Source: an uncultured virus (IMG/VR IMGVR_UViG_3300029305_011567) (Duplodnaviria > Heunggongvirae > Uroviricota > Caudoviricetes). From it: a stretch of DNA of 64,000 bases. Where the stretch lies: IMG/VR virus record IMGVR_UViG_3300029305_011567; one strand, written 5' to 3'. Both the position numbers and the translations under genes were made by a program. Below the pieces are notes generated by a model that was given only the letters and a program-made list of their open reading frames with translations, did no database searches and had not been told where the DNA came from. Shown here in pieces: positions 27,133 through 60,990 of this stretch (positions are counted from its first letter, which is position 1; every line of letters starts with the position of its first letter).

Positions 27133-27600
27133 ATGAAAAAGGGAAAATATTATTTGACTGATTTGGAACGGCTGGGAGCATCCTTTATTTATGAAAAAGT
27201 GGTTTTGAAAGATTTATCCGGAACGCATTACTCCGGTATGCTTATGATGAACGGAAAAATGTATCGTTCGTGTGTCGTGCGTAATCTGTTTGGGACAGGC
27301 TATTTGTCCGGCATTGTTGAAGATAACCCAAGCAGTCGCAGTAATCGTGATGAAATTCATAAATATATTATGGACCGTATTGCATCGGGAGAGTGCCCGG
27401 AATTTGAAAAAGCTGCTCTTAATAGAACTGTGCAAAAATTTTTATTTAAGATACTGTTTTTGATATGCCTTATTTTTTCCATTTTCTTCGGCGCACAGCT
27501 CCATAAATATCCGTGTCGCGACGCTTTTATTTCATTTATTTTACCTGTTATCTGTTGTATTGTTTCTGTACGTGCCTACATAGGAGCGTGCCGAATTTAA
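27133..27600 (+). CDS. Membrane protein, paralog of 31032-31517
   Basis: Two C-terminal TM helices; shared D.ER.G..YEK...G.L..NGK...V.R.L.G motif. Confidence 0.6.
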   Translation: MKKGKYYLTDLERLGASFIYEKVVLKDLSGTHYSGMLMMNGKMYRSCVVRNLFGTGYLSGIVEDNPSSRSNRDEIHKYIMDRIASGECPEFEKAALNRTVQKFLFKILFLICLIFSIFFGAQLHKYPCRDAFISFILPVICCIVSVRAYIGACRI

Positions 27601-27617
27601 AAAGGAGTGTGGATATT

Positions 27618-28526
27618 ATGAGAGAACCAAGTGAATATTTACAATCAGATACTCTGGATATGATTCAGACATTCTTATTGACTTGCAAACAGAGCCGAAC
27701 TAGGACTTCTTATTTTTCATGCCTTAATATTATCTGTGATTTTTGTCATAAGGATTTCTTAGAAATTGATTATGAGGATGCGCGAGCATTCTTTGATAAT
27801 ATGCAGTCCCAGTATTATAATCAAAGTATCACGCATGGTACAATATGTGTACGCCTTTCTTGCTATAATTCCTTTGCAAAGTTTGTAATGCGTAATTATC
27901 CGGAATGTGAATATAAAAACCCGTTTTTGCTGATTCCTCGTCCTGTCATTGACACGAAAATCAATCCGCGCCGCATTCCGTCGCTTACGGAACTGGATTC
28001 AGTGCTGACAACGGCAAAATCCATGTCGTCCATGTACTATGTGATTCTGATATTTGCGCTGCGCATGGGCTTATCTATTTCAAAGATTGTTAGCATAAAA
28101 AAGAGTCAGATTCTCTGTGAAGCAGCAGGCATGTTTTTATACTTACCAGCAAGTGACAGTACTAAAAATGACTTGTATGTAAAGGTTCCGGAAGATGTTC
28201 GTCAGGTTCTTGAAGATTACATTGCTAATATACCTTTTTCGGATGAAGAAGGTCACATCTTCTATAATAAATGGAATAATCCATTATCTATCAAAAATGC
28301 CGACGAATTTATCCGCGTGATTATGAGCAAGAGTGACGTTCTTGGCAAGTATACAATCAAAGATCTCCGTAGTCGTGCCATATTGGATATGGTTGAAGCT
28401 GGTGCCGATACCGAATCCATTGCAACATACACCGGATTGTCTAATATGCGTGTGCAACAGTTTTGTAATGCCAGCGGTATTGTTGGTGCTTGTCCTGCGG
28501 AACTTGTCAATTTACGTGTTGTGTGA
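27618..28526 (+). CDS. Tyrosine recombinase/integrase-like protein, catalytic residues degenerate
   Basis: SAM-like N-domain; ALRMGLSISKI, TIKDLRSR, GADTESIATYTGL...VQQF. Confidence 0.75.
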   Translation: MREPSEYLQSDTLDMIQTFLLTCKQSRTRTSYFSCLNIICDFCHKDFLEIDYEDARAFFDNMQSQYYNQSITHGTICVRLSCYNSFAKFVMRNYPECEYKNPFLLIPRPVIDTKINPRRIPSLTELDSVLTTAKSMSSMYYVILIFALRMGLSISKIVSIKKSQILCEAAGMFLYLPASDSTKNDLYVKVPEDVRQVLEDYIANIPFSDEEGHIFYNKWNNPLSIKNADEFIRVIMSKSDVLGKYTIKDLRSRAILDMVEAGADTESIATYTGLSNMRVQQFCNASGIVGACPAELVNLRVV

Positions 28527-28629: not shown

Positions 28630-28730
28630 GATTTTTCAAGAATAACTAAAATATAACTAAAATATTTGAGTTATAATTTGAGTTATTCTTGAAATATCTC
28701 AAATATTTTAGTTATATTTTAGTTATTTAC
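28630..28730. repeat. Cluster of ATAACTAAAAT / ATTT(T/G)AGTTAT direct and inverted repeats
   Basis: Motif read directly about 6 times in both orientations. Confidence 0.8.
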
Positions 28731-29343: not shown

Positions 29344-30408
29344 TGTAGGTTTGTCAAACATTTGTTACACCCGATGCCAAATAATCCTGTAGCACTTGAT
29401 TGGGTGTTTTCCATCCAAGCGGTCTCATGGGGAAATGGTTGTAATCCCTGCGGTTATACACTTTCAGTTGGTGTGCGAAGTCTTTAAAAGAATAGAAAGA
29501 ATGTGTGGCATAGAAGCGTTCATTATCCTTTCTGTGGCTTCTTTCAACTTTGCCATTATGTCTTGGTGTAAAAGGACGAATTACTTTGTGCCTGATTCCA
29601 TAACGCTCCAAATGAACCTGAAACATGGTCGGTTTATCACGGTGAGTAGTAAATCGGTTCGTGAATTCCGTACCGTTATCGGTTTGGATACACGCAATAG
29701 GAAGAGGGAATGCCTTTACCAGATGATCCACGAACATGGCAGAAGAATAAGTGTTATGTTCTTCAAAAGCTTCGACAAAACGCCATCTGGAATATTCGTC
29801 AATGGCAGTATACTGAAAGAACTGCTTGCCGATCACCTTGCTGTTAACAAGGCATGCAGAAGGAACAAACTTTACATCAACCTGTATACGCTGACCGGGA
29901 TAATTCATTGTTTCATAAGGCTTGGGAATATACTTTGGGTTAGCAGGATGAACTGCCATAATACCCTGTTTACGAAGGAAACGATATAGTCCCGGAATGG
30001 AACGGGAATAACCACGCTGCATGAGTTTTACCCAAAAGACAACAAGACCGGCATCGGGGTTTCGTCTGCGCATATCCATGATGAGTTTCATTTCCTCAGG
30101 AGTATGCTGATTAGGATGGTGATGAGGTCTGCGTGATTTTTCACGCAAGGACTCTATAGAGCCATCGTAACGGCGTTTCCAACGATAAATATATTGCCTG
30201 TTGGTTTTGTACTTGATGGCAGCTTTGGTGACACCAAATTTTTCAGCGTATTTAATAAGCGATAGACGATATCTCATATCCTGTGTTATACTAGCCATGC
30301 GGGGAAGCTCCTTTATGTTTTTTGTTTTGTGGTGATTCAAATATAACACAAAGAGCGTATCCTCGCTTTTTAATTATTCAGTTGTAACACATGTATTGTA
30401 ATCCTACA
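29344..30408 (-). mobile_element. IS481-family insertion sequence
   Basis: 26-bp imperfect terminal IRs starting TGTAGG; single DDE ORF; 25-bp flanking direct repeat. Confidence 0.88.
29354..30298 (-). CDS. IS481-family DDE transposase
   Basis: N-terminal HTH; QVDVK, QTDNGTEF, NGKVERSH. Confidence 0.92.
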   Translation of the reverse strand: MASITQDMRYRLSLIKYAEKFGVTKAAIKYKTNRQYIYRWKRRYDGSIESLREKSRRPHHHPNQHTPEEMKLIMDMRRRNPDAGLVVFWVKLMQRGYSRSIPGLYRFLRKQGIMAVHPANPKYIPKPYETMNYPGQRIQVDVKFVPSACLVNSKVIGKQFFQYTAIDEYSRWRFVEAFEEHNTYSSAMFVDHLVKAFPLPIACIQTDNGTEFTNRFTTHRDKPTMFQVHLERYGIRHKVIRPFTPRHNGKVERSHRKDNERFYATHSFYSFKDFAHQLKVYNRRDYNHFPMRPLGWKTPNQVLQDYLASGVTNV

Positions 30409-31521: not shown

Positions 31522-32082
31522 TTATTCCCCTTCCTTTTCATCAAATAACATTTGCAACTCATTATAGAGCATATTGTCTGTGTTATGCTCTTTCATATAT
31601 TCTATGATAGCAAAAAACCGATTCTCAAGATGTTCCAACTCGTCTGCAGTGCAGGCTATTTTTTTACTTTTGTTTATTACACCTTTGTACTGCTGTCCTT
31701 TTTGCGATTCATATGCATATAAATACTGAGACAGACTCTCCAGTAAAAACAATCCTGAGTGTGTGCATAACATGTCATTAAGCATTTGATATATCATTTT
31801 ATCGTATGGATCTTCCGATAAGGACAGCTTATAGAATACATGGTCTGACTTTAAATGACTCTCTTCTACTTCTTCTCTCCATGTGTCCGTTTCTCCAAGT
31901 AAATATTCAAAACTCACATGAAAATAATCATGGTAGGCTTTCAGGTCTTTTAATGTAGGCTGTCTTTTTCCGCTTTCCAGTTCGCATATGTGCGGGTTAT
32001 AAAATCCTTCTCCGAACCGGCGGCATAATTCTCTTTGCCCGATGCCTTCTGTAAGCCGTAGTTTTAAAAACCGATTCTCCAT
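31522..32082 (-). CDS. XRE-family HTH protein
   Basis: IGQRELC...ELESGKRQPT...FHVSFEYLLGETD. Confidence 0.8.
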   Translation of the reverse strand: MENRFLKLRLTEGIGQRELCRRFGEGFYNPHICELESGKRQPTLKDLKAYHDYFHVSFEYLLGETDTWREEVEESHLKSDHVFYKLSLSEDPYDKMIYQMLNDMLCTHSGLFLLESLSQYLYAYESQKGQQYKGVINKSKKIACTADELEHLENRFFAIIEYMKEHNTDNMLYNELQMLFDEKEGE

Positions 32083-32087
32083 GAGCC

Positions 32088-33338
32088 TCACCCCCGTATC
32101 TTAATTAACAATTCTTCAATTTCTGATTCATCCCGGAGAATGAAACACTCGTATTCATCGTTATTCTCAGCGAATACCGCTTTTTTATTGTATTCTCTTG
32201 TGGATAGTGCCGTATCAATGAGAATACTCTTTCCCTTGAACCTCTCGATAATAAAAGCTGGCACCAGATTTCCATATGCTTCTATCGGCATATAGGGCTT
32301 TAGAAAGATTACTCTTTCTTCGCACAATCTGTCTGCTACTGCTTTCTCAAGCTCATTGCTTACATATAGCCCATGCGAAGTTGTGTAACAAATATTGCCT
32401 TTTAGCATGGTGATCCAGTCCGATATGCTACCACCGTTTTTATTCTGGTAACGGCTTCTATGTATATATCCCGCCAAAACACGTCGCATACCTTCTTTTT
32501 CCGGCGCTTCCTCTACCATTTCCTTAAAATCTTCCGTCAAAATACGCACTGTGGCTTTGTATTTGCTCTTATCGGATGGCATTTTGACTGTAATGTACTG
32601 ATACTTCCTATCTTCTTTAAAAGCTGCTATACGGTCAATTTCCGCGTACATAAAGTATCGGATTCGGTAATCATCATTTGCATAGAACGTATCTTTGTGA
32701 TAACAGATTGCCCTTAGTGGAACGACCTGACCTTCTACTTGTATTGTGATATCATTTGAAACACCGAAAATCAGACGGATGAATTCTTCATATGTTTTAT
32801 ACTGCCAGTTTGGTATTTCGCCCTTCTTTCGGGCTTCTTTAATTTCCTTTTTCTTACTATACGTCTGCTTTTCCCAAGCAATGCTTGTTAGTGCACGAAT
32901 CATTTCTGTCAGACTGGTGCGCTTGTAGGTGACTTCTTTTTTACTGGTTTCCTCGCCAGAGCTGTTAGATTCCCTTTTTTCATAGGTGCGCTTAATCACG
33001 GCCGGCATTGCGATATTGAATATGATCTGGCTATCTTCATTACCGTAAATCCCATTTCCGTGTTCTACAACCCATCTTGTGTATACTGTGGACTTTGGAC
33101 AAGACTCTTTGTGCCGGTCCTGCTGGTGGTTGGTTTTTACACGGATTACGCCTGTTGTTGTGATAGATAGTTCCAGTTCATTACACTCATTGCAAGCGCA
33201 AAAAAGCTGCAGGCTACCATCCTGTGTCATGCGACGCATCTGTGCTACGGATTCCGGTTCATATGACTGGAACTCTTTATATGAGATATAATTCTCTCCA
33301 TATTCAGTTAGGGTACGAAAATAGCCTGTCTTTACCAT
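32088..33338 (-). CDS. DUF1173-like protein (Zn-binding N-terminus, degenerate PD-(D/E)xK-like C-terminus)
   Basis: LFCACN...H..SC; FLKPY...VPAFII...ILID...Y.KK. Confidence 0.45.
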   Translation of the reverse strand: MVKTGYFRTLTEYGENYISYKEFQSYEPESVAQMRRMTQDGSLQLFCACNECNELELSITTTGVIRVKTNHQQDRHKESCPKSTVYTRWVVEHGNGIYGNEDSQIIFNIAMPAVIKRTYEKRESNSSGEETSKKEVTYKRTSLTEMIRALTSIAWEKQTYSKKKEIKEARKKGEIPNWQYKTYEEFIRLIFGVSNDITIQVEGQVVPLRAICYHKDTFYANDDYRIRYFMYAEIDRIAAFKEDRKYQYITVKMPSDKSKYKATVRILTEDFKEMVEEAPEKEGMRRVLAGYIHRSRYQNKNGGSISDWITMLKGNICYTTSHGLYVSNELEKAVADRLCEERVIFLKPYMPIEAYGNLVPAFIIERFKGKSILIDTALSTREYNKKAVFAENNDEYECFILRDESEIEELLIKIRG

Positions 33339-33516
33339 ATCTTATCTCTCTTGTTCTTGCGACGTCGCAATATTTTTTCACATTTGTATATAATAATATT
33401 CTTGTTGCCTTGCGATAACTCAAAATATTTTAGTTGGATATGAACCTATAAATTCCGTTCAGTAGCCTTGTTGTTTGGCAATATTCCAAAACCAATGCTG
33501 CGTTTACGTTGATACC

Positions 33517-33620
33517 GTTCAGTAGCTTTGTTGTTTGGTAATATTCCAAAACATCAAATAGCCTTTGCTGAGTGGAAATAGTTTCCCTCAGCCTTCGGCA
33601 GCTGAATCTGCCGGGTATAT
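33517..33620 (-). ncRNA. Cas12f guide-RNA scaffold + repeat, unit D
   Basis: Conserved scaffold CCCGGCAGATTCAGCTGCCGAAGGCTGAG...CTCAGCAAAGG fused to repeat. Confidence 0.75.
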
Positions 33621-33740
33621 ATTATGTTATTTTAGCTCGTTATAGATGCTCTGTCTGCATTGCAAGTGCATTGTTTTAATTGCCATGAAACATTTTGCAA
33701 TTTCCAAAACCCAATGCTGCGTTTACATTGCAACCTATCG

Positions 33741-33844
33741 GTTCAGTAGCTTTGTTGTTTGGTAATATTCCAAAACATCAAATGACCTTTGCTGAGTGGA
33801 AATAGCTTCCCTCAGCCTTCGGTAGCCGAATCTACCGGGTATAT
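33741..33844 (-). ncRNA. Cas12f guide-RNA scaffold + repeat, unit C
   Basis: Same scaffold with compensatory stem CGGTAG/CTACCG. Confidence 0.75.
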
Positions 33845-33957
33845 ATTATGTTATTTTAGCTTGTTAAAATTGATTCTGCTTACATTGCAAGCACATTATT
33901 TAAATTGCCGTGTAGTATTTTGTAATACTCCAAAACTGAACAACTATTTTAGATGCA

Positions 33958-34060
33958 GTTCAGTAGCCTTGGTATTCTGCAATACTCAAAACATCAAAAG
34001 ACCTTTGCTGAGTGGAAATAACTTCCCTCAGCCTTCGGCAGCTGAATCTACCGGGTATAT
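33958..34060 (-). ncRNA. Cas12f guide-RNA scaffold + repeat, unit B
   Basis: Same scaffold, more diverged repeat. Confidence 0.7.
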
Positions 34061-34156
34061 ATTATGTTATTTCAACTCGTTTAATGTACTTCTGTCTGTT
34101 TTGGAATATTACACGATGCTTTAAAATATAGACATCTGTTCAAAATTGCATTTTAT

Positions 34157-34260
34157 ATTCAGTGGCTTTTTTTGTTTGGCAATATTCCAAAACATCAAAT
34201 AGCCTTTGCTGAGTGGAAATAGTTTCCCTCAGCCTTCGGCAGCTGAATCTACCGAGTATA
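34157..34260 (-). ncRNA. Cas12f guide-RNA scaffold + repeat, unit A
   Basis: Same scaffold, beginning about 9 nt after the cas12f stop codon. Confidence 0.75.
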
Positions 34261-34268
34261 TATTTATC

Positions 34269-35447
34269 TTATACAAAGTCCTTTGACAATGCAACCTGTT
34301 TACCTAAATCGCGTTCTGTCTTTATAGATATGGTTTCATTTTCCGTTGGAACATCAAGTGCTTTTACTTTCTGCACGATTATACCATGCAACGACGCTTT
34401 GTACTCCAAAAACTGTTGAATCATATAAAAGGAACCTTGTAACAAAACATTCTCTTTTTCGTCCATATCTTCCACATGAATATATTTTGCTTCATTTTGA
34501 AGCGCAAAGTCTATGATGCGTTTGGTTATCATATGATTATAAGTCCGCGCAAAGTGGGCTTCATGCCGACCTACCCTGTCAAGTGCACGCAATTTTTCCT
34601 TACGTCCATGCCCGCCTTTTGCATCACGCAGCGCTCTTTGTAACCGGCTACGCTGTGCTTTGATTTTTGTGCGCATACGGCGGAGTTCATCACTACTTCC
34701 TATTAATTCGGTGGCATATTGATTATTATTTACTCCGCATACAGCCGGTATTGTTTCACCAAAATACACACCTACAACAGTATCTTCTTTTAGGGCATGT
34801 TCTTTTACGGGAATTGACAGGCAAAGATTTATCATTATCTTTTTACCGGTTTTGTCAAATTGAATGCCGCTTTGCTGAACCAGATAGTTTTCTTCAAATA
34901 TGTTTTTCAGTACACTCCTTAATTCCGCGGATCGGTGCGGGTTTCCAAGAACTACTCGGAATTGAATTTTATTAACCCAGTGAAGATATATTTCCAAATC
35001 CTGCTTGTAAAGATGTTCTAAAAACTCTGTATGGCTACTATACGGGTGCTTAAACTTGAGTGCTGTTTTTGCTGTCATAACGGGCATATCTCTTTTGTAG
35101 TTTCTAATAGCCCGCTCACCTTTGGCAAGTCCATTTTTAACATCATTCATAAAATCAGACTGTATACGGTGGGTGAGTAATGCTTTTGTTCCCAACCCAG
35201 TTTGATACTCGATGTCGTCTAACAGCGGATTGTGGTAATTATTCCTCAGACGGTCTTTAAATTCCTCATTTTTGATATCCCTTCCGCACTCATAATATTT
35301 ACTGGCAATCTGCCCCATTAACGTATTCATGGTGATATACTGGGAATACTGCGCATCACGGATAAATTTGTATACTCTTTGCACTTCTTCCTTGTCACCA
35401 ATCGGATAAAGCTGTATTTTTCTTGTGATAGTCTGTCTGTCTTTCAT
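34269..35447 (-). CDS. cas12f: Cas12f/TnpB-family RNA-guided protein, predicted nuclease-dead
   Basis: ITRKIQLYP N-terminus, G.R.IRNYK, GGHGRKEKL, YNH.ITKRIIDFA, IHVED, LEYKA..HGI.V; RuvC-I reads VGVYFG; no Zn-ribbon cysteines. Confidence 0.85.
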   Translation of the reverse strand: MKDRQTITRKIQLYPIGDKEEVQRVYKFIRDAQYSQYITMNTLMGQIASKYYECGRDIKNEEFKDRLRNNYHNPLLDDIEYQTGLGTKALLTHRIQSDFMNDVKNGLAKGERAIRNYKRDMPVMTAKTALKFKHPYSSHTEFLEHLYKQDLEIYLHWVNKIQFRVVLGNPHRSAELRSVLKNIFEENYLVQQSGIQFDKTGKKIMINLCLSIPVKEHALKEDTVVGVYFGETIPAVCGVNNNQYATELIGSSDELRRMRTKIKAQRSRLQRALRDAKGGHGRKEKLRALDRVGRHEAHFARTYNHMITKRIIDFALQNEAKYIHVEDMDEKENVLLQGSFYMIQQFLEYKASLHGIIVQKVKALDVPTENETISIKTERDLGKQVALSKDFV

Positions 35448-59886: not shown

Positions 59887-60990
59887 CTAGCTCTTTTTAT
59901 TCTTAAAATATCTACATATGTATGTGCGCATACTCTCATAACTAACGTGGTATATTTCTGCTATTTCTTTTACGGATTTTCCTTGATTGTAGTATAGGTC
60001 TTTAATTTCTTCTTGCTTTTTTGATAATAATCTAAATGTCCTTTTGGATGGAATGTGCACTTTTCTCATGTATGCGTGTATAGTCGATGCGTGAACATGG
60101 TATATTTCTGCTATTTCAATTGCACTTTTTCCTTGATTGTAGTATAGATCATATATGTTCTCCCTTTCGGCTTCACTTATCATAGAATCTTTCGTGGAAT
60201 TTCCTGTGTCTATACCCATTTTAGCCATATAATCTAATAAAGTACTACGTTGTACCTGATATAATTTAGCTATTTCAGTTATACTTTTCCCTTGCTCCCA
60301 GTATAAATTCGATACCATATCTTTATACTCTGGAAATAATTTTTGAGGTTTTTTACCACCTTTATTTCTTAACGGTATCTCGTGTTTTTTCATATAGTTT
60401 GACATGGCATGTTTTTCAACTTTATATATGGCCGCAATTTCTCTTATGGATTTTCCACTTTGATATAAAGCACGGATAACATCCTTTTCGCTCTCACTAA
60501 TGGAACTTCTTTCTTTATTGCGTACAATATGGTGCTTTTTGATATAATAGAGGATAGTGGTTTCATGCACATGGAAATAATCTGCTATCTCTGATATTGT
60601 CATCTTTTTTATACAGTACAAGTCGATAAAGTCTGTCTCGTTAATTATGATTTCGCGAGGCCCGCTAATTGGTGCCTTATCTCTTTTTATCCAATTACAG
60701 ATTGTCTGATAACTCACACCAAAGTATGTCGCCAGTTCTTGATACGACCATTTTTCCACAGAATGCAAATAAATTAAATTTTCTTTTGTTGCGCTATCCG
60801 GGCGTTTTGTTGCTACGTATTGATAATGGCGGTTGCGGCTACACTTGATACCAGCTTTTTTCAACCATTTGTATATCGAATTTTGTGATATCCCCCACTG
60901 ATCTGCCAGTTGTTTTACAGTCATGTGTTGTTTCTGGTACTCCTCGCATATTTCTTTCTTTATTTTGTCAGTGATTTTTTTGTATTTCAT
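59887..60990 (-). CDS. Tandem multi-HTH protein
   Basis: About 7 repeats of LY...GKS..EIA..Y.V...T. Confidence 0.75.
   Translation of the reverse strand: MKYKKITDKIKKEICEEYQKQHMTVKQLADQWGISQNSIYKWLKKAGIKCSRNRHYQYVATKRPDSATKENLIYLHSVEKWSYQELATYFGVSYQTICNWIKRDKAPISGPREIIINETDFIDLYCIKKMTISEIADYFHVHETTILYYIKKHHIVRNKERSSISESEKDVIRALYQSGKSIREIAAIYKVEKHAMSNYMKKHEIPLRNKGGKKPQKLFPEYKDMVSNLYWEQGKSITEIAKLYQVQRSTLLDYMAKMGIDTGNSTKDSMISEAERENIYDLYYNQGKSAIEIAEIYHVHASTIHAYMRKVHIPSKRTFRLLSKKQEEIKDLYYNQGKSVKEIAEIYHVSYESMRTYICRYFKNKKS

Follow-up and report, generated by a model that had tools for sequence, protein, structure and literature searches.

A predicted nuclease-dead Cas12f with four probable guide-RNA genes in tandem in an uncultured Caudoviricetes virus, and the likeness of its repeat family to type II-A repeats

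Results

The uncultured virus record IMGVR_UViG_3300029305_011567 (Caudoviricetes), a stretch of 64,000 nucleotides (nt) that we refer to as the window, contains on its minus strand a gene for a Cas12f homologue, P0001 (392 amino acids (aa); 34269..35447), which is predicted to be nuclease-dead and lies directly upstream of a series of guide-RNA units. This series consists of a unit of about 220 nt that occurs four times on the minus strand at 33457-34283. An initial annotation had read the 36-nt repeat within these units as a streptococcal type II-A (Cas9) CRISPR (short palindromic repeats, clustered and regularly interspaced) repeat that was captured and is used backwards. We consider a different reading likely: the repeat would be the CRISPR RNA (crRNA) handle of four tandem guide-RNA genes for a non-cutting Cas12f, its II-A likeness would be inherited family-wide and run forwards, and the locus would be fixed.

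As resolved with Tandem Repeats Finder and a repeat finder, the locus is not a simple array: each unit combines a scaffold, with the repeat as its 3' part, and a guide, and the 126-nt core of the units is 73-94% identical between copies. The plus-strand 36-mer was present where the initial annotation had placed it, in two exact copies and one with two mismatches, and none of 100 shuffled versions of the window contained a match; further, degenerate copies lie beyond the annotated range, at ~33958-33992 (35 nt) and 34157-34193 (37 nt). Followed in the direction of the Cas12f gene, the minus-strand features begin with unit 4 (34157..34283), which overlaps the final 15 nt of the gene and joins a scaffold of stem 1 and stem 2 to the 37-nt repeat; it is 78% identical to unit 1 in direct-repeat family D1, is part of alignment A2 and is matched by nhmmer on the minus strand. 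An irregular stretch of ~41-43 nt then runs to ~34116. Unit 3 (33958..34082; D1, 73% identical; A2) joins its scaffold to the 35-nt repeat copy and is followed by a 21-nt guide (33937..33957) and a degenerate terminal repeat (~33898-33936). The exact repeats belong to units 2 and 1. Unit 2 (33741..33866; D1, 94% identical; A2) has its repeat at 33741-33776 and its 30-nt guide at 33711..33740, after which comes a degenerate terminal repeat (~33673-33710, with a fragment at 33693-33710). Unit 1 (33517..33642), the reference copy of D1 and likewise in A2, has its repeat at 33517-33552 and its 24-nt guide at 33493..33516. The series closes with the 36-nt repeat copy with two mismatches (33457..33492), which has no scaffold of its own; on the gene strand, the 7 nt upstream of it are spacer and not a leader motif, and the promoter region of the next gene follows.

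A regular array of unique spacers is thus not what the window contains: there are four scaffold-fused units, the guides of units 1 and 2 are diverged duplicates (3 mismatches in 20 nt), and the DNA between the units is duplicated as well (direct-repeat families D4 and D5). The spacer at 33711-33740 does have the 30 nt ascribed to it in the initial annotation as the usual II-A length, but its low-coordinate flank is only the degenerate repeat fragment and the other spacers are irregular. On the gene strand, the junction before the repeat reads ATTTGAT/GTTTT in units 1, 2 and 4, which is 6/7 of the motif ATTTGAG. Contigs from four animal-faeces DNA metagenome runs contain the arrays, in pieces, without a single difference; these runs may not be independent, possibly stemming from one campaign or being the window's own source. 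Because the junction is mutated, the spacers are irregular, the units are duplicated and the arrays are identical in four metagenomes, the locus looks fixed, and acquisition of new spacers here is unlikely. Behind unit 4, plus-strand positions 34098-34112 read as the repeat does in its first 15 nt on the gene strand; this partial inverted copy is probably what is left of a terminal repeat's near-palindromic 5' hairpin.

In PADLOC, P0001 is matched by the Cas12u3 (E 2e-69) and Cas12f (E 2e-68) models, over profile positions 3-342 of 398 only. A profile of alignment A1, consisting of P0001 and 11 homologues, finds CnCas12f1 (PDB 8hr5; E 7e-117) along with other Cas12f structures, and also the 'nuclease-deactivated Cas12f' 9n9c (E 4.5e-32). 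In Pfam, the match to the Cas12f TNB domain covers its first 23 positions out of 60 and no more. For the assignment of motifs to RuvC I, II and III we assume what is established for TnpB and Cas12f. Aligned with the 11 homologues, P0001 has Tyr for the RuvC-I Asp (VGVYFG) and Glu for the RuvC-III Asp, which leaves a Tyr-Glu-Glu triad, and ~30 residues of the zinc finger are deleted; the relatives of ~417 aa in the alignment keep VGVDLG, the Glu, two CxxC pairs and NADFNA. P0001 thus retains Cas12f effector homology and lacks the Asp-Glu-Asp triad and zinc finger of a competent nuclease. Because two of the three catalytic residues and the zinc finger are lost, we predict that P0001, a Cas12f of the V-F1/U3 lineage, does not cleave DNA. 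P0004, which has the same length and is 96% identical, shows the same dead-site changes. In P0006 and P0007 (51-52% identical), the RuvC-I Asp is replaced by Ala and half of the zinc finger is gone, with RuvC-III kept, which, judged from the sequences, suggests that the clade has undergone inactivation independently a second time.

Homologues of P0001 at 40-56% identity are numerous: 315 were found at E<=0.001, and 803 in a representative library. They are carried by viral contigs of up to ~216 kb, from which 80 loci were kept, and by metagenome-assembled genomes of Lachnospiraceae and other, mostly Clostridia, taxa. Short arrays border the gene on both sides in these relatives; their 36-nt repeats recur on the gene strand with a period of 65-67 nt. 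When the window's four units were used as the seed of an iterated nhmmer search, it recovered these four on the minus strand and returned 251 scaffold-plus-repeat matches in relatives; all 251 lie on the gene strand, 136 of them upstream and 115 downstream of the gene.

Which RNA would these units form? Alignment A2 combines the four units of the window with 24 from relatives. RNAalifold predicts two hairpins for it, with compensatory changes at 10 of 15 pairs, and two further helices were added by eye, one joining the loop of hairpin 1 to the repeat's five final bases, the other joining a short scaffold segment to the repeat's 3' half. In the resulting model of 28 pairs, 95.6% of the cells pair and 20 pairs have changed on both sides; none of 500 shuffles reaches any of five measures, and slid controls pair at 33-48%. 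Of the added helices, the pseudoknot has 97% of cells pairing and 4/5 pairs compensatory, and the anti-repeat helix 94% and 6/8. The G-U pairs are compatible with the gene strand only, including one U-G pair in stem 1 of unit 3 that is permitted on the minus strand alone, and between units 1 and 2 stem 1 shows the compensatory change GGCAG/CTGCC to GGTAG/CTACC. Repeats of the family end in CAAAAC, CCAAAC, TCGAAC or CTGAAC, and the stem-1 loop is complementary to each; covariation with the repeat's 3' end is seen for this loop but not for the linker motif. The 'Cas12f-type' CTGAAC end singled out in the initial annotation is explained by this pseudoknot with the stem-1 loop.

The scaffold thus has, by covariation, the features of a type V-F trans-activating CRISPR RNA (tracrRNA), namely stem 1, stem 2, the pseudoknot and anti-repeat:repeat pairing. 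In the window, the separate anti-repeat and the linker are mostly deleted, and the anti-repeat strand joins the repeat's own 5' half. Because it runs into that half, each unit is, as far as its sequence tells, a natural single guide RNA (sgRNA). Excerpts of PMC12255294 describe sgRNAs of Cas12f1 with this same core (stem 1, pseudoknot and stem 2). Folding of one unit on either strand did not tell the strands apart (z -2.7 vs -1.8), a promoter scan of the window did not rise above chance, and no Rfam family reached its gathering score in the window. Candidate plus-strand terminators were rejected, being simply stem 1.

How does this repeat relate to type II-A repeats? The streptococcal repeat used for comparison in the initial annotation is that of the type II-A array of Streptococcus mutans P42S (PMC7316486, in excerpt), and a hand count against the printed sequence confirmed 26/36 identities for the plus strand; the gene strand gives 15/36. 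The claimed cluster of differences at the CTGAAC end was borne out as well, with 4 of the 10 mismatches at positions 4-7, in the complement of CTGAAC. By binomial estimate, at least 26/36 matches have a chance of 7e-8 (per-position match 0.285, by hand from base counts), and P(>=18/28) is 1.1e-4 once the shared ends, GTT and AAAAC, are fixed in advance. A captured repeat, read in reverse and still filled by host Cas1-Cas2-Csn2 inserting guides into these mini-arrays, would account for this antisense identity and for the one 30-nt spacer. Such a reversal might even suit the effector: CnCas12f1, the nearest solved relative, is cited with a C-rich protospacer-adjacent motif (PAM) specificity, and a 5' CCN PAM would mirror the 3' NGG PAM, so that reverse reading would keep the PAM beside the guide.

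The evidence from the clade itself makes capture highly improbable, the least probable of the explanations considered here. Compared with 38 unique repeats of relatives, the gene-strand repeat of the window reaches 28/36 at best and is colinear with their first repeats behind a homologous scaffold, and its 3' half and CTGAA end covary with its own scaffold. Over the interior 23 nt, it matches the repeat family of its own clade at 12.6 positions (null 7.2, p<0.0005), compared with 8.3 forward (p 0.027) and 10.5 reverse (p 0.0055) for II-A repeats. The II-A leader motif is on the gene strand, where it points the same way as the Cas12f RNA, and is missing from the plus strand. The matched streptococcal repeat is presumably linked to S. 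thermophilus CRISPR3. In the excerpted text of PMC5382924, the CRISPR3 locus of S. thermophilus falls into leader group 2, with CTRCGAG; the matched repeat is that reported for streptococcal II-A loci in excerpts of PMC4466440 and PMC7316486, yet no CTRCGAG stands beside the plus-strand repeats. Spacers of 24, 30, 21 and ~41 nt, two of them duplicates, in arrays that are identical in four runs also speak against ongoing insertion. The antisense match arises in part because II-A-like repeats have near-palindromic ends (the TTCCAAAAC block). Judged by its sequence, the repeat belongs, in diverged form, to the family found in the phage Cas12f clade and lies closer to the repeats of these V-F relatives than to II-A repeats; most probably it was neither captured nor put to use backwards.

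The II-A link is real, but it belongs to the phage Cas12f clade at large, and its direction is forward, because the junction lies on the gene strand. For comparison we used 26 unique II-A repeats taken beside csn2 in Lachnospiraceae, where 44 of 401 genomes have Csn2. The repeats of relatives match these at ~20/36 on average (mean best 23.6 forward and 24.4 reverse) as against means of 7-16/36 for five unrelated repeat families, and their interiors match at 10.0 positions forward and 11.5 reverse (null 6.5 +/- 0.2). The arrays agree in geometry too: among the unique spacers of relatives, 61/86 are 30 nt and 83/86 are 29-31 nt long, and Lachnospiraceae II-A arrays have a period of 66. ATTTGAG/GTTT is the group-1 II-A leader-repeat junction (PMC5382924, in excerpt), and ATTTGAG precedes the first repeat in 20/28 of the II-A loci. 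In relatives, the 7 nt before the first repeat were scored in 139 distinct units: 56 have exactly ATTTGAG and 93 deviate from it by at most one mismatch, counted at a fixed offset that likely undercounts (background 1.5e-4 per position); by eye, the A2 relatives give 13/24 exact and 19/24 within one mismatch. The motif is kept across scaffolds of 53% per-column identity and is absent in 7/7 distant Cas12f relatives with other repeat families. Closely related phages have their distal spacers in common and differ in the scaffold-proximal ones, and none of five phage records of relatives, three of them 97-100% complete, contains cas1. The II-A likeness of the relatives probably reflects a host II-A adaptation machine used in trans. 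The borrowing of host Cas1-Cas2-Csn2 suggested in the initial annotation therefore stays plausible for the relatives, given their junction, 30-nt spacers, spacer turnover and lack of cas1, and is unlikely at this locus with its ATTTGAT, irregular and duplicate spacers, unit duplication and identical arrays.

Two further observations concern the II-A loci of Lachnospiraceae (L107-L136). Many of their leaders share CTCGGTGAGAA 10-25 nt before the first repeat, just upstream of ATTTGAG, which may be the end of a tracrRNA or a terminator hairpin set right before the array. Among 341 II-A spacers, there was one match to the Cas12f-relative phages and none in two whole phage genomes: spacer 4 of L117 matches 23/24 nt of L055 7179-7202 and of L056 7143-7166, both Cas12f-relative phage contigs, which hints, weakly, at encounters of such phages with hosts carrying II-A systems.

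Searches for protospacers of the relatives gave little. Their 86 spacers, compared with 0.96 Mb of loci and two whole phage genomes, returned spacers shared between arrays, noise of 15-17 nt and one 23-nt near-self match, and three IMG/VR scans found only the near-self allele or the arrays themselves. The near-self match belongs to a spacer of a nuclease-intact system (L050 5504-5533) and lies in its own phage genome (G812:C1:37880-37902); the same allele is identical in a second phage contig, L184, and its 5' part differs. This spacer may target a rival's allele of that gene. A degenerate core of the repeat gave 13 single, non-array matches in IMG/VR, and across 401 genomes of the phylum of G406 the repeat core gave 10 single matches compared with 13 for a reversed control, a chance-level result. 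In JGI metagenomes, neither the repeat's exact 3' half nor a stem-2 pattern had any match, and INPHARED contained no DNA match for 24 kb of the window or for a relative's cassette.

Directly downstream of the guide units lies the gene for P0002 (416 aa; 32088..33338, minus strand), a protein near DUF1173 / Endonuc-like_C that is assigned to no Pfam, PHROG or PADLOC family; comparison with DUF1173 clusters in the Atlas gives a feature score of 0.94 and a TM of 0.60, a lead only. P0002 could be a partner of the dead Cas12f, and may or may not belong to the module. Overlapping P0002, and two genes downstream of Cas12f, is a weak HTH_3 protein (31522-32091), followed by a small membrane protein; no sigma factor (rpoE) adjoins the Cas12f gene. 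Elsewhere the window encodes a sortase, NrdD/NrdG, clamp-loader genes, an integrase, a transposase and a relaxase-like gene, and none of the 62 open reading frames scanned belongs to the cas1, cas2, cas9 or csn2 families. Between the integrase (27513-28526) and the rve transposase (29354-30349), positions 28642-28726 hold three short tandem repeats of 11-12 nt, which may be an attachment or binding site. A 367-aa protein at 59887-60990 (minus strand) contains many helix-turn-helix (HTH) repeats, with dozens of overlapping HTH family matches.

Discussion

The locus can be described by the following mechanism. Each minus-strand unit would run from stem 1 and stem 2 through a short anti-repeat and ATTTGAT to the 36-nt repeat and the guide. 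The last five bases of the repeat (CTGAA) would pair with the stem-1 loop as a pseudoknot, the 3' half of the repeat would pair with the anti-repeat, and the units would serve the adjacent 392-aa Cas12f of the V-F1/U3 lineage. P0001 most likely binds DNA under RNA guidance without cutting it and would act as a repressor or recruiter, like dCas12f and TldR. In its nuclease-intact relatives, the scaffold ends in ATTTGAG directly before GTTT and heads short arrays of 36-nt repeats and 30-nt spacers that gain new spacers at this point. In the window, a duplication of ~220 nt would have multiplied the units, the junction would have mutated and the guides would have become fixed.

For the clade as a whole, a more far-reaching scenario can be put forward, although we hold it to be less likely than not. 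The gut-phage Cas12f clade may live off host II-A adaptation, with the scaffold end serving as leader end, Cas1-Cas2-Csn2 loading 30-nt spacers and the type V effector reading from the other side. The arrays might also arm host Cas9 if the host tracrRNA pairs with them, and the window would be a nuclease-dead, fixed-guide end state of such systems.

A number of observations weigh against these interpretations. No RNA run containing the stretch was found, and we infer the strand and the ends of the guide RNAs. No guide target was found within the window at up to 4 mismatches per 20 nt, in IMG/VR (0 hits for the exact unit 3 guide and for a degenerate pattern covering both duplicate guides) or in INPHARED phages, and the locus could be decaying instead of exapted. 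The II-A likeness of the window's own repeat is modest, the best match among the 26 Lachnospiraceae II-A repeats being 20/36 forward and 21/36 reverse (p ~0.06 vs interior shuffles). The central block of the antisense match, 12/13 positions, is left unexplained by palindromy, and the coincidence is thus not fully accounted for. On the side of the hosts, Csn2 (PF09711) is found in 0/9 genomes carrying relatives, where the base rate in the sampled family is that given above, and Cas9 in only 3/9; the sole carrier genome with a type II array in reach has a repeat there unlike its Cas12f repeats. A 3' PAM chosen by Cas9 would, in the forward direction, not serve a 5'-PAM Cas12f. Lastly, a contact with RNA or protein, and not integration, could be the reason why ATTTGAG is conserved.

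Would decay alone explain the locus? As a remnant of a phage CRISPR-Cas12f cassette without present function, it would be expected to show what we see in part: a dead catalytic site and deleted zinc finger, degenerate terminal repeats, irregular spacers and a mutated junction, and guides that match nothing in the three sequence sets. A remnant would hardly keep an open frame of 392 codons, of the same length in the 96%-identical relative, or compensatory and wobble changes between duplicated units that preserve stem 1 and the pseudoknot. The independent Asp-to-Ala inactivations of P0006 and P0007 suggest recurrent exaptation, and excerpts of PMC13472631 provide a working dCas12f precedent. We therefore regard decay as unlikely.

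It is doubtful, but a good deal less so, that the family-wide II-A likeness stems only from convergence or common descent, that II-A adaptation proteins are not put to use at present and that spacers are supplied by another integrase or by recombination. The lack of Csn2 in the nine carrier genomes fits this explanation, as does the absence of protospacer or PAM support from our searches, and the motif lies inside the transcribed scaffold, so it may have a role in the RNA. Descent or convergence sits less well with a motif that persists across such diverged scaffolds and is missing from the seven relatives with other repeats, with spacer gain that is polar at the junction, and with spacers held tightly at 30 +/- 1 nt. 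Moreover, 10 nt of leader end together with the first repeat are needed and sufficient for II-A adaptation, as PMC5382924 states in the excerpt at hand, citing Wei 2015.

The repeat might instead, or besides guiding the dead Cas12f, act on host Cas9. Phage RNAs that mimic CRISPR repeats and block CRISPR are known, and the initial annotation had raised interference with host Cas9 as an alternative. The minus-strand RNA would be complementary to the streptococcal II-A repeat at 26/36 positions, in blocks of 4, 8 and 9, and in either orientation the clade's repeats bear a likeness to those of II-A; the RNAs would then be an RNA anti-CRISPR that mimics tracrRNA or crRNA. A decoy would have no need of the full Cas12f scaffold that every unit keeps, with compensatory changes and beside an intact Cas12f-like frame, and identity to the 26 Lachnospiraceae II-A repeats is only 20-21/36. 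This makes such mimicry very unlikely, hardly more probable than capture of the repeat, and we return to the reading of the units as guide-RNA genes for a non-cutting Cas12f.

Among the closest known systems is the type V-F1 (V-U3) effector CnCas12f1 of Clostridium novyi (PDB 8hr5), which shares with the window the effector homology, the order of stem 1, pseudoknot and stem 2, the 3' guide and 36-nt repeats. In contrast to CnCas12f1, the protein of the window has the Asp-to-Tyr and Asp-to-Glu replacements and a deleted zinc finger, and its tracrRNA and crRNA are fused in four tandem single-guide genes with no regular array. TldR proteins, whose targets include fliC and oppF, are a second point of reference. 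According to excerpts of 10.1101/2023.11.30.569447, TldR is likewise a nuclease-dead TnpB/Cas12 relative on mobile elements with a fixed guide RNA downstream of its gene, but it belongs to the TnpB lineage, not to Cas12f, and has a single guide, whereas the window has four and no target was found for them. The dCas12f-sigmaE systems and the array-associated dCas12f cluster of PMC13472631, as excerpted, are another close counterpart: they likewise show RuvC inactivation, C-terminal loss, several guide genes per locus and chimeric single guide RNAs seemingly derived from repeat-spacer units. The case of the window differs as an independent inactivation in a Clostridia-phage clade, with Sphingobacterium loci only ~26% identical and active relatives 50-56% identical, and its locus has no adjacent rpoE, lies on a Gram-positive mobile element and possesses a tracr-type scaffold. 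From its sequence, the window locus would follow the known pattern of a nuclease-dead Cas12f with fixed chimeric guides, arisen independently in a gut-phage clade.

The II-A arrays of leader group 1 (PMC5382924, in excerpt) combine, like those of the relatives, 36-nt repeats with 30-nt spacers, have the identical junction and gain spacers in a polar way; the window itself has the near match ATTTGAT/GTTTT on the gene strand. They differ in that no cas9, cas1, cas2 or csn2 was found here (in the 62 reading frames of the window and, for cas1, in the five phage records), in that the RNA uses the upstream repeat plus spacer, which is type V polarity, and in that the 'leader' is Cas12f scaffold RNA. 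Our literature search, with the supplements of the cited papers outside its scope, found no publication containing both ATTTGAG and Cas12. A 'Cas12 hacker' preprint deals with a phage system of E. coli and has no bearing on this locus.

The locus would be one more independent example of a miniature Cas12f that has become an RNA-guided DNA binder without cutting activity, here on a mobile element of Gram-positive gut bacteria and with four tandem sgRNA genes. It adds to the dCas12f and TldR cases and offers compact natural sgRNA designs. Beyond this locus, phage V-F arrays without cas1 bear the exact leader-repeat junction needed by II-A integrases, which may point to a sharing of adaptation across CRISPR types. 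If host II-A systems do fill these arrays, this would account for how V-F1 systems that lack adaptation genes of their own keep their arrays current, and it would open the conflict of PAM orientation between Cas9-chosen spacers and a 5'-PAM effector to direct testing. The phage would then be exploiting the immunity of its host against rival phages.

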